Below, in pieces: positions 1 through 51,662 of a DNA stretch of 64,000 nt. The position numbers and the translations under genes are program-made. Every line of letters begins with the position of its first letter. The first letter of the stretch is position 1. The stretch is from Candidatus Thalassarchaeum betae (lineage in GTDB: Archaea > Thermoplasmatota > Poseidoniia > Poseidoniales > Thalassarchaeaceae). Location of the stretch: NCBI GenBank assembly GCA_003193925.1, contig PSPG01000001.1, positions 96,001-160,000 of the forward strand. The letters run 5' to 3'. Under the pieces are notes generated by a model that had not been told where the DNA came from, made no database searches, and worked only from the letters and a program-made list of their open reading frames with translations.

Positions 1-86
1 CGAAGGTCGGCACCGGCCAACTCGGCCCCCCTGAGGTCGGCATCGATATGTGATGTGAAGGACCAGTCCTTCGGCGGTTCTGTCAC
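1..86 (-). CDS. Pentapeptide-repeat protein, N-terminal fragment (runs off the window)
   Basis: Manual translation from GTG at 86 gives MTEPPKDWSFTSHIDADLRGAELAGADL, containing A(D/E)Lxx pentapeptide repeats. It starts 9 nt downstream of the 96..638 ORF. Confidence 0.7.
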   Translation of the reverse strand, partial: MTEPPKDWSFTSHIDADLRGAELAGADL

Positions 87-50100: not shown

Positions 50101-50379
50101 TCAACTGAAATGTTCGCTAAACTCTCCCTCACTCATCGCTTGCAGGGCATCCTTCGGAGTCATGCCCTCCACGTGCACTCGCATCGAGACGCAGGTGCCC
50201 ATCACCTCGCGGCACCGAGCGTACAGGTCAGCACCGGTCAGACGGTCCTTCTGATCCTCTGCGATTTCCTTGACTTGATCCATGGTCAGATTCTCCGAAG
50301 CCTCCTCCCAGGAGCCGTTGCAAGTCTTCTGCCCCAGCATCTGAATCACCTTGTGCGGTGTTTCGTTACGTGCAGACAT
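50101..50379 (-). CDS. rpl11: Ribosomal protein uL11, C-terminal rRNA-binding domain only (92 aa)
   Basis: NLTMDQVKEIA..K..L...L....REVMGTCVSMRVHVEGMTPK, in the canonical spt5-rpl11-rpl1 position. GGAGG SD before ATG 50379. Confidence 0.82.
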   Translation of the reverse strand: MSARNETPHKVIQMLGQKTCNGSWEEASENLTMDQVKEIAEDQKDRLTGADLYARCREVMGTCVSMRVHVEGMTPKDALQAMSEGEFSEHFS

Positions 50380-50465
50380 TCGTGATAGCCTCCTGTAAGT
50401 GCGCCCCGCCGACCTGCTTTCCATATTTGAGAGTGATGCAACGCCCGCAGGGCGTGCTTCTAGGG

Positions 50466-51332
50466 CTACTCCACGCGCTGAGTCACTCGAACCTGATCGG
50501 CGCGCACGGTCAGAGCCACAGGAACAGCGGCCTCAAAGAGCTCGACCGTGACTTCCTCCTTGGATTCGGTGACCCGTGTCACGCGAGCAGCCTGGCCGCG
50601 GAAAGCACCACCGTGGATCTCCACGATGCAGCCTTCCTCGATGCCGGCGGTGGCCGCCTTCGGCTCGAGGTACGGCAGGACGTCACCTAGAGGCGACTCG
50701 CCATCGAGCACCTTGCGGCAGTTCTTCATCGGCGTAGTGGACACTCCTACGCGCCCGATGAGCTTCTCGACATGGTGCAAAGCGGAGGCCTCGACGAAGA
50801 TGTAGCCGCGCATGAAGTGCGGGCTCAGGACTCCGAAGATCTGGTCTTGGATCTCCTTGAGCGAGCCGGTCCCAGAGAGTCTTGCGCGGATCTCCTTGGC
50901 GACGTTCTGCTCCTGGCCGATCGAGGTCTTGAGGATGTAGAGGAACGAGGCGACATCGCCATACATCTCACGGAGCTGCGGGGTAGCGTACTTCTTGTCT
51001 TGAATGCTGCCGGGGTCGACCCACTCGAATGCCGTGTACAGGCCTCGCGGATCGACTTCCTCGGCAGAGCTGGCGAATAGCACCGGGGTGACCTCGTTGA
51101 GGCGGTTGCCGAAGGCGAGGCCGCGAGCCTCGCCCGAGCGGACGAACTCCAGATTCTCGGCATCTATTCCGGTGACTTCGGTGATTCTGGCGGTGACGGC
51201 GTCCGCATCTTCCGGGTCGCCGACGCCGTAGATGCCATCCCAAGCCCCGGGGAAGTCTGCAACCCCGTCTGCTCGCTGCATCAGCAGGACCCTCTCCCCG
51301 TTGCGGATGAAGACAGTGAACGCGTCCGACAT
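50466..51332 (-). CDS. spt5: Transcription elongation factor Spt5 (NGN plus KOW) with an N-terminal Nudix-like domain
   Basis: NGN (KTSIGQEQNVA, GYIFVEA) and KOW (GCIVEIHGGAFRGQAARV..VTVELFEAAVPV), plus 125 extra N-terminal aa (RVLLMQR..FPGAWDGIYG..EVTGI..FEWVDP). Confidence 0.9.
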   Translation of the reverse strand: MSDAFTVFIRNGERVLLMQRADGVADFPGAWDGIYGVGDPEDADAVTARITEVTGIDAENLEFVRSGEARGLAFGNRLNEVTPVLFASSAEEVDPRGLYTAFEWVDPGSIQDKKYATPQLREMYGDVASFLYILKTSIGQEQNVAKEIRARLSGTGSLKEIQDQIFGVLSPHFMRGYIFVEASALHHVEKLIGRVGVSTTPMKNCRKVLDGESPLGDVLPYLEPKAATAGIEEGCIVEIHGGAFRGQAARVTRVTESKEEVTVELFEAAVPVALTVRADQVRVTQRVE

Positions 51333-51341
51333 GTACCCACC

Positions 51342-51608
51342 TCATGTGCCGGTGAGCCAACCGAAGAAGGACGGGAAGGCGCTGTCCATCAGCCACAGTA
51401 TCACAAATCCAATGGCGCCGAGGATGAACATCCCGATACCGCAGACTATCACGGTCTGGCGGAACTCCTGCTTCGTTGGCTTCCTAGCCATCTTGAGGAT
51501 TCGGGCGTAGGATCCGGTCTGGAGGCTTCGAACGCGTCCCTCGATCTCGTCCTGCCAGCCCTGCACGGTCTCTTCGATCGGACCGACATTGGAACTCTCG
51601 ATAGCCAT
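51342..51608 (-). CDS. secE: Protein translocase SecE/Sec61-gamma
   Basis: YARILKMARKPTKQEF plus TM GIGMFILGAIGFVI, in the ftsZ-secE-spt5 synteny. TATA-like CTTAAAT about 40 nt upstream. Confidence 0.93.
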   Translation of the reverse strand: MAIESSNVGPIEETVQGWQDEIEGRVRSLQTGSYARILKMARKPTKQEFRQTVIVCGIGMFILGAIGFVILWLMDSAFPSFFGWLTGT

Positions 51609-51662
51609 GACTAACCCTCGAAGCGACCCGGCGACCGACAGACCCCATTTAAGCACGCCGGG

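Follow-up and report, generated by a model that had tools for sequence, protein, structure and literature searches.

To our knowledge, Spt5/NusG is the only transcription factor conserved across all domains of life, and its archaeal version is usually treated as a minimal protein consisting of an NGN and a KOW domain. Dead Nudix domains are known from NrtR, AraR, the NUDT9H domain of TRPM2, CFIm25 and the C-terminal domain of MutY, and they mostly bind nucleotide-derived ligands or nucleic acids. In a 64,000-nucleotide stretch of the Candidatus Thalassarchaeum betae genome (contig PSPG01000001.1, positions 96,001 to 160,000; this whole stretch is referred to as the window), a single spt5 gene brings the two together. 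The last 160 of its 288 codons specify an ordinary Spt5, and the first 128 specify what is predicted to be a Nudix fold with a degenerate catalytic box. The gene (50466..51332, reverse strand) is one open reading frame, stop-free throughout, and its ATG at 51332 lies nine nucleotides past the secE stop (51344–51342). The original prediction, made from the sequence alone, had put this spt5 in its canonical secE–spt5–rpl11 position, with a GAGGTG motif overlapping the secE stop and a series of Nudix-like motifs in the translation. SecE (28.2 bits) is indeed found upstream and L11 downstream, the frame and the GAGGTG lie where they had been placed, and every quoted motif is present in the translation, including the box from G36 to I56.

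Residues 129–288 are a standard archaeal Spt5 with NGN and KOW domains. Family scans place the NGN domain (PF03439) at residues 131–193 with 40.5 bits and the Spt5 equivalog TIGR00405 at residues 132–286 with 108.3 bits (cut-off 69.95), while the KOW match (PF00467, residues 236–264) reaches 19.2 bits and stays under its cut-off of 22.3. When an AlphaFold2 model of the protein was superposed on known structures with VIA, residues -1..82 of 3lpe_A fell on model residues 128..225 (Z 13.9, root mean square deviation 1.4), and 3p8b_B and 9bct_G covered 128/129–287/288 (Z 13.9); Foldseek likewise matched Pyrococcus furiosus Spt5 (3p8b_B, E 1.7e-13) alongside Nudix hydrolases. Since these reference chains map to model residues 128/129–288, they begin where the extra domain ends. 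The likeness to described archaeal Spt5 (3p8b_B, 9bct_G, 3lpe_A/4zn1_A; Z 13.9, 36% identity) thus takes in both the NGN and the KOW domain, and it extends to the secE–spt5–rpl11 context and to a genome-encoded Spt4; the references, however, start at query residue 128–130, and the query adds 128 N-terminal residues with a separate fold. Spt4 (PF06093) was detected at 45.8 bits in the same genome and is encoded in all 61 of the order's genomes that were scanned, which rules out the Nudix domain as an Spt4 replacement. In two genera (G029, G037, G039, G041 and G047) the Spt4 match spans only the last 41–61 of 77 Pfam positions within open frames of 125–137 residues, and the Spt4 N-terminus may be altered or extended there.

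Residues 1–128 are predicted to adopt the alpha/beta/alpha Nudix fold. Scanned alone, residues 1–125 match NUDIX (PF00293) at 28.0 bits against a cut-off of 21.1 (E 2.4e-6), and the orthologous fragment P0121 matches it at 24.4 bits. The AlphaFold2 model, built on 28 orthologues, has a mean predicted local distance difference test score of 83.7 and a predicted template modelling score of 0.65, with 10-residue block means of 76–96 over residues 1–130. Its best Nudix match in VIA is 6dt3_B (Z 16.0, 2.3 Å, 127 residues), with 3grn_B at Z 15.5 and dozens more Nudix chains at Z 14–15, all over model residues 1 to ~130; the superpositions overall have Z 14–16 and deviations of 2.1–2.5 Å with 117–129 residues aligned. 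Non-catalytic Nudix folds are among them, namely NrtR (3gz8_A, Z 15.1), AraR (5bs6_D, 13.9) and the MutY C-terminal domain (4ypr_A, 14.1). A profile of 18 orthologues and five box-intact relatives, the inclusion of the latter favouring Nudix matches, matched 24 sequences of the Protein Data Bank, and with few exceptions the names listed denote Nudix hydrolases or other proteins of that fold (best 3grn, E 5.8e-8); a single-sequence phmmer search of the same sequences with residues 1–130 returned two chance-level matches only (E 0.19 and 0.44). The N-terminal Nudix fold that had been proposed from motifs is therefore borne out by the model, by Foldseek, by the range of Z scores and, more marginally, by the excised-domain Pfam match.

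The catalytic box itself has largely gone. Compared with the canonical GX5EX7REUXEEXGU, the domain retains G36 and G55–I56, and the end of the box, REUXEEXGU in box-intact relatives, reads ARITEVTGI, with A48, R49 and V53 at box positions R15, E16 and E20. The E7 position is taken by D42 and is missing in family f3, and E52, at position E19, is the sole acid kept of three; it is at least 90% identical among orthologues, and E, D, A and Q all occur among the 32 that were aligned (L001–L032). G36 and G55 are 19 residues apart in the organism's own family and 17 in f3, against 21 in the canonical box, which makes this box two to four residues shorter. Also lost relative to box-intact relatives are the His of the VHP strand, the Ser before the box Gly and the GEP turn. 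The box that marks active Nudix hydrolases was therefore not found, the degenerate metal-binding box of the original prediction holds with one of three acidic positions kept and that one variable, and the domain would appear unable to perform canonical Nudix hydrolysis. Across 28 sequences, twelve domain residues from F5 to D106 never vary, and neither do M1 and the junction Y124–G125; the twelve include Arg10, Arg20, Trp31, Asp32 and Asp106, and the invariant residues are spread over the whole fold. The same genome also has an ordinary 150-residue Nudix gene (L065:1288-1740, reverse strand, contig C7, ~12 kb past the right end of the window) with a perfect GX5EX7REUXEEXGU box, which serves as an internal control for the degenerate one; the adjacent frame (L065:1730-2611) looks, by eye, like an undecaprenyl-diphosphate synthase.

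The fusion is one polypeptide and not an assembly error. A database search returned 791 proteins at E<=0.001 out of 4148 candidates, and the best 120 of these 791 are 285–292 residues long and at least 88% identical; one 99%-identical entry carries the name Candidatus Thalassarchaeum betae, and there are others named Poseidoniales. Among 151 genomes of this order (Poseidoniales by source names; three families, 22 genera), every one gave a match, and in 145 this is a single stop-free piece running from residue 1, 2, 4 or 5 to at least residue 279. Two of the other six (G005 and G143) hold both halves within one open frame with an insert, one (G095) has them split between two frames, and three (G084, G098 and G124) are fragments at contig ends. 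Neither the sister order nor the matches listed for 237 other Thermoplasmatota genomes showed a Nudix–Spt5 fusion; outside the order, the Spt5 matches listed begin at query residue 95–131, and a search for longer relatives gave, among the matches listed, near-identical orthologues of 285–290 residues throughout. Within the order the fusion recurs in relatives, and a lost stop or a misassembly is not indicated.

The upstream part is also under purifying selection. The ratio of nonsynonymous to synonymous substitution rates (dN/dS, by Nei–Gojobori, from pairs with estimable dS, several pairs being saturated) is 0.06–0.18 for the Nudix part and 0.01–0.07 for NGN–KOW, and the dN of the Nudix part is several-fold above that of NGN–KOW. 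This selection favours a start at the upstream Met, as do a Shine–Dalgarno-like motif that precedes this start at 28 of the 32 orthologous loci and the replacement of the internal Met123 (near 50964) by Leu in six of 32 orthologues. Contigs assembled from RNA libraries join secE to the start (X3 and X4) and span the Nudix–NGN boundary (X1); the contigs from all four libraries used, of separate studies, leave parts of the gene uncovered, carry neither start nor strand information and may reflect DNA carry-over, so that they lend weak support to a one-frame gene. Length variation within the family was also noted: an insertion of 11–23 residues sits behind the DPG motif (near residue 109, in the Nudix domain) in f3 as well as in some genera of f1, and a nine-residue insertion in the NGN–KOW linker is confined to f3.

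Residues 1–130 gave 161 matches at E<=0.001 among 1.84 billion cluster representatives (27 at E<=1e-10 and three at E<=1e-30), and the nearest matches other than orthologues and orthologue fragments are proteins of 400–480 residues and small Nudix proteins of 128–165 residues, with 30–38% identity over the whole domain (E 1e-11 to 1e-4). By Pfam, 35 representatives comprise 16 with NUDIX and IF-2B (PF01008), 14 with NUDIX only, three Spt5 fusions, one with NUDIX and an AcnX swivel domain, and one without a match; one fusion among these relatives is from Halobellus, and the name HVO_1934, also among the Nudix plus eIF-2B-type relatives, is taken from a table in PMC8576121. The archaeal Nudix and Nudix plus eIF-2B-like proteins share R10, R20, W31, G33, G36, T54–G55, P83 and W104 with the Spt5 domain; they still have the canonical box as well as the His, the Ser and the GEP turn that are missing from the Spt5 domain, and their partner domain has a sugar-phosphate-isomerase or eIF-2B fold where here it is NGN. 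In a quick maximum-likelihood tree of 134 domains, all Spt5-fused domains, those of Marine Group II, form one clade with a Shimodaira–Hasegawa-like approximate likelihood-ratio support of 100; its stem is 1.11 substitutions per site long, and the other 95 domains lie on the far side.

Standalone Nudix genes of the P0147 type occur in 186 of the 301 phylum genomes sampled, among them five of eight of the sister order, where they are open frames of 151–165 residues, and in the Poseidoniales rows listed the P0147-type matches have coordinates inside the Spt5 gene. The simplest history has the fusion arise once, in the ancestor of the order, with catalysis lost afterwards. The source would then be a small archaeal Nudix family with intact boxes, still standalone in sister lineages, and after the fusion the domain may have evolved fast, lost its metal-binding box and gained strong acidity. 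Neighbourhoods of the standalone genes gave no consistent functional hint among the loci compared. In one (L058, 653-1899) the intact-box Nudix gene overlaps the end of a gene that looks, by eye, like a purQ-type glutamine amidotransferase, and in another (L059, 573-1914) the upstream frame has the same start sequence as that purQ-like gene; three others have an unrelated 483-residue frame upstream, and a kinase-like gene recurs, by eye, on the other strand.

In the model, the last Nudix helix (residues 120–127 by DSSP) is followed by two residues and then by NGN strand b1 (residues 130–136), and no insertion or deletion occurs at residues 117–160 in any of the 32 orthologues, so the length of the Nudix–NGN junction is constant. 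PMC2896526 describes Ala-4 of Methanocaldococcus jannaschii Spt5 as lining the depression that binds the clamp, reports that A4R abolishes polymerase binding, and sets this depression opposite the Spt4 face. By the structural alignment with 3lpe_A, the equivalent of Ala-4 is about residue 133 here, and the extra domain would therefore hang five or six residues from the polymerase-binding surface. It is also strikingly acidic: its net charge is -8 to -17 and its isoelectric point 4.1–4.6 in 32 of 32 orthologues, and NGN–KOW of the same proteins ranges from -5 to +1.

Taken together, these observations lead us to regard the domain as probably a non-catalytic binding module that rides on the elongation complex, a reading in which we infer both the position and the binding. 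A dead Nudix fold, joined within one polypeptide by a fixed two-residue linker to the first NGN strand, would sit beside the hydrophobic pocket by which NGN grips the clamp coiled-coil of RNA polymerase. What it might bind is more tentative. Given the ligands that dead Nudix domains elsewhere mostly bind, a small molecule derived from a nucleotide and lodged in the inactive pocket, after the example of NrtR, AraR and the NUDT9H domain of TRPM2, is ranked first, although with clearly less than even confidence, and occupancy of that pocket would change how Spt5 sits on the clamp. Ranked close second, and likewise only a possibility, is an acidic module that faces a protein or chromatin, like the acidic N-terminus of eukaryotic Spt5; this is suggested by the acidity itself, by the acidic tails of the sister order and by the loss of the relatives' pocket residues. 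A purely electrostatic role is harder to reconcile with a folded domain in which Arg10, Arg20, Trp31, Asp32 and Asp106 are invariant.

Several points weigh against the binding-module reading. NUDIX is not listed when the full-length 288-residue protein is scanned, and the orthologues P0127, P0129 and P0133, full or partial, have no NUDIX match at E<=0.001; membership at the level of sequence is accordingly marginal, coming from the excised domain and from phmmer links, with structure adding support. With a template modelling score of 0.65, both a surviving pocket and a packing of the Nudix domain on NGN are only tentative in the model. A nucleotide ligand in particular must contend with the loss of all box acids but one, with the lost His, Ser and GEP turn and with the pronounced acidity. 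Some enzymes of the Nudix superfamily act without the canonical box, so that residual chemistry is possible, and any partner or ligand of the proposed module is hypothetical.

RfaH conceals its polymerase-binding site until triggered, and by analogy Spt5 might here be metabolite-gated and possibly auto-inhibited. A nucleotide-derived metabolite would occupy the Nudix pocket and, since the two-residue linker fixes the domain to the strand lining the clamp-binding depression, would open or block the grip on RNA polymerase. We regard this as unlikely, but if it were true, global elongation and processivity in an archaeal group that is among the most abundant in the ocean would respond to nucleotide or energy status.

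The original prediction favoured a different role, that of a module which recognises or acts on nascent RNA at its 5' end (triphosphate, NAD or NpnN cap), or senses nucleotides of this kind, and would thereby couple 5'-end status to the elongating polymerase in the manner of RppH, NudC, Dcp2 and CFIm25. Being part of Spt5, the domain is necessarily tied to the elongation complex, and Nudix proteins that act on RNA are among its structural matches (Bdellovibrio RppH, 3ffu_B, Z 14.1) and its profile matches (3ees, E 6e-6; NudC, 5iw4/1vk6, E 0.002), but dozens of other Nudix proteins match at least as well. Neither the intact box of the RppH/NudC/Dcp2 class nor the N-terminal zinc-motif domain of NudC was found, the domain being a minimal 128-residue Nudix fold with nothing ahead of it. 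With the catalytic box lost and two to four residues shorter, and with the non-box residues conserved in box-intact relatives lost as well, an RNA-end reader is disfavoured, and a domain this negatively charged in every orthologue aligned would be a poor match for polyanionic RNA. Attachment is, moreover, at the clamp-binding end of NGN, and in known complexes the RNA exit side is faced by the KOW domain and not by the N-terminus of NGN. The nucleotide- or 5'-end-sensing idea is therefore somewhat disfavoured, and as a specific account of the domain we judge 5'-end reading improbable.

Equally improbable, in our view, is a relic without a specific partner, neutral or at most stabilising (aiding solubility, for example), that is kept only as part of an essential protein's fold. 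Other Thermoplasmatota have an Spt5 with a different N-terminal domain or with short acidic tails, and such lineage-specific additions imply that the Spt5 N-terminus tolerates them; the domain also evolves faster than NGN–KOW. A relic, however, would not be expected to show no clean loss in 151 sampled genomes of 22 genera, a dN/dS well under 1, invariant residues across the whole fold and a linker of fixed length.

Still less credible is an enzyme that works through non-canonical residues, as IPP (isopentenyl diphosphate) isomerase and GDP-mannose mannosyl hydrolase do. Polar residues that could serve such chemistry are present (invariant R10, R20, D32 and D106, and E52 at its high identity), and IPP isomerases appear both as weak NCBIfam matches (18–22 bits) and as structural matches (1hzt and 3hyq, Z 14.0–14.1). 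Those bit scores are far under the cut-offs of 105–127 bits and reflect the shared fold, E52 itself varies, and the long stem of the fused clade together with a domain dN several-fold that of NGN–KOW fits released catalytic constraint.

An artefact, whether a lost stop, a misassembly or a start at Met123 that would give a normal 166-residue Spt5, can be set aside as very improbable: an internal Met is present near 50964 and RNA-library contigs can reveal neither transcription nor translation start, but the uninterrupted frame recurs in 145 of 151 genomes from three families and, independently, in hundreds of database entries, purifying selection acts in frame on the upstream part, Met123 is replaceable while the upstream start keeps its Shine–Dalgarno-like motif, and X1, X3 and X4 add their weak support.

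The Nudix domain of Poseidoniales is not the only addition to Spt5 in this phylum. The normal length of archaeal Spt5, given as ~150 residues in the original prediction, has to be qualified, for in other Thermoplasmatota a different domain precedes NGN. This extension of ~120–150 residues was found in 50 of 301 phylum genomes, including 36 of 36 in one family and 0 of 63 in Poseidoniales; Pfam gives it no significant match, and its predicted structure is a beta-sandwich, with Z 10–11 to beta-sandwich domains. The Spt5 N-terminus has thus been extended at least twice in the phylum. In the sister order, the two genes read encode Spt5 of 179 and 187 residues in which a short and very acidic tail leads into NGN strand b1, recalling the acidic N-terminus of eukaryotic Spt5, and the Spt5 of another family (L042, start uncertain) is apparently acidic-tailed as well.

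The gene downstream of spt5 is remodelled too. Its product matches NF002232 at positions 82–158 of 164 only, and the conserved start is probably Met16 at 50379, which would give 92 residues. In 29 of 32 orthologous loci rpl11 encodes ~90–105 residues and begins at the interdomain hinge (alignment of the 29). PF03946, the N-terminal domain of L11, was detected in 0 of 41 genomes of the order, in 34 of 40 from sister orders and in all 14 controls; a six-frame scan with PF03946 found no L11 N-terminal domain encoded elsewhere, and when a full-length sister-order L11 was searched against five genomes, two of them single-contig, only its residues 68/73/77–156 matched. The whole N-terminal domain of L11, which is near-universal, has therefore been lost across the order, on the same branch as the Spt5 fusion. 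Downstream of spt5 the frames follow the order L11, L1, P0, P1, with L1, P0 and P1 assigned by eye from frame order and sequence.

Table 1. Features of the secE–spt5–rpl11 locus (window positions) and Spt5 variants of other lineages (positions within each named locus).
Feature	Coordinates	Strand	Basis or remark
secE	51342..51656	-	Upstream of spt5; stop TGA 51344-51342; PF00584 SecE 28.2 bits (cut-off 22.7)
Shine–Dalgarno-like GAGGTG	51338..51343	-	Overlaps secE stop; 5 nt ahead of spt5 ATG
Pseudo-Nudix domain (predicted), residues 1-128	50949..51332	-	PF00293, AlphaFold2 model, VIA Z scores, dN/dS
Degenerate Nudix box, residues 36-56	51165..51227	-	Alignments with box-intact relatives and 32 orthologues
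Spt5 NGN domain, residues 129-215	50688..50948	-	PF03439 40.5 bits; DSSP of model; 3lpe_A alignment
NGN–KOW linker and KOW, residues 216-288	50469..50687	-	TIGR00405; PF00467; 3p8b_B/9bct_G; stop 50466-50468
rpl11	50101..50424	-	Downstream of spt5; context, outside the fusion; C-terminal rRNA-binding domain only
Extended Spt5, 269-299 residues	L041:635-1441	+	Other families
Extended Spt5, 269-299 residues	L045:605-1465	+	Other families
Extended Spt5, 269-299 residues	L046:542-1438	+	Other families
Extended Spt5, 269-299 residues	L049-L057		Other families
Acidic-tailed Spt5	L043:1189-1725	-	Sister order
Acidic-tailed Spt5	L044:1423-1986	+	Sister order

Among the papers listed from the open-access literature, no description of an Spt5–Nudix fusion or of the L11 truncation was found, and in a paper that names both Spt5 and Marine Group II, Spt5 is only a marker gene; the suggestion that such a coupling is undescribed in archaea is consistent with this. 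Public entries are named 'Spt5' or 'NusG', and among the entries listed the precomputed Pfam annotation is NGN only (one also has KOW), so the fused Nudix domain is effectively unannotated in them; that NUDIX goes unlisted in a full-length scan probably explains this NGN-only annotation. An entire globally abundant, uncultured marine order carries a conserved, selected pseudo-enzyme domain on Spt5. If the domain binds a metabolite or partner, it would be a new input into elongation control, and one accessible via recombinant protein. The loss of the L11 domain and the second, unrelated Spt5 extension further point to an unusual remodelling of the secE–spt5–rpl11 locus and its products in the phylum.

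Several known systems bear comparison with the fusion. NrtR and AraR, which also have degenerate catalytic motifs, are winged-helix DNA-binding repressors whose effectors are ADP-ribose and arabinose. The likeness to NrtR (3gz8) and Bacteroides AraR (5bs6) is that a Nudix fold is carried on a domain that addresses the transcription machinery, with a structural similarity (Z 15.1 and 13.9) as high as that to active enzymes; the partner here, however, is the polymerase-binding NGN, and any ligand is hypothetical. Eukaryotic Spt5 shares with the archaeal fusion an acidic module N-terminal to NGN (-8 to -17 here), but its acidic N-terminal region is largely disordered and has no sequence kinship, whereas the module described here is compact and has a confidently predicted fold. 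Finally, domain II of Aquifex and Thermotoga NusG (1m1g and 2xhc) and the beta-sandwich extension of other Thermoplasmatota Spt5 are Ig-like or beta-sandwich domains, none of them Nudix, and the bacterial insertion points differ too; they do, however, show that the NusG/Spt5 scaffold accepts lineage-specific domains.

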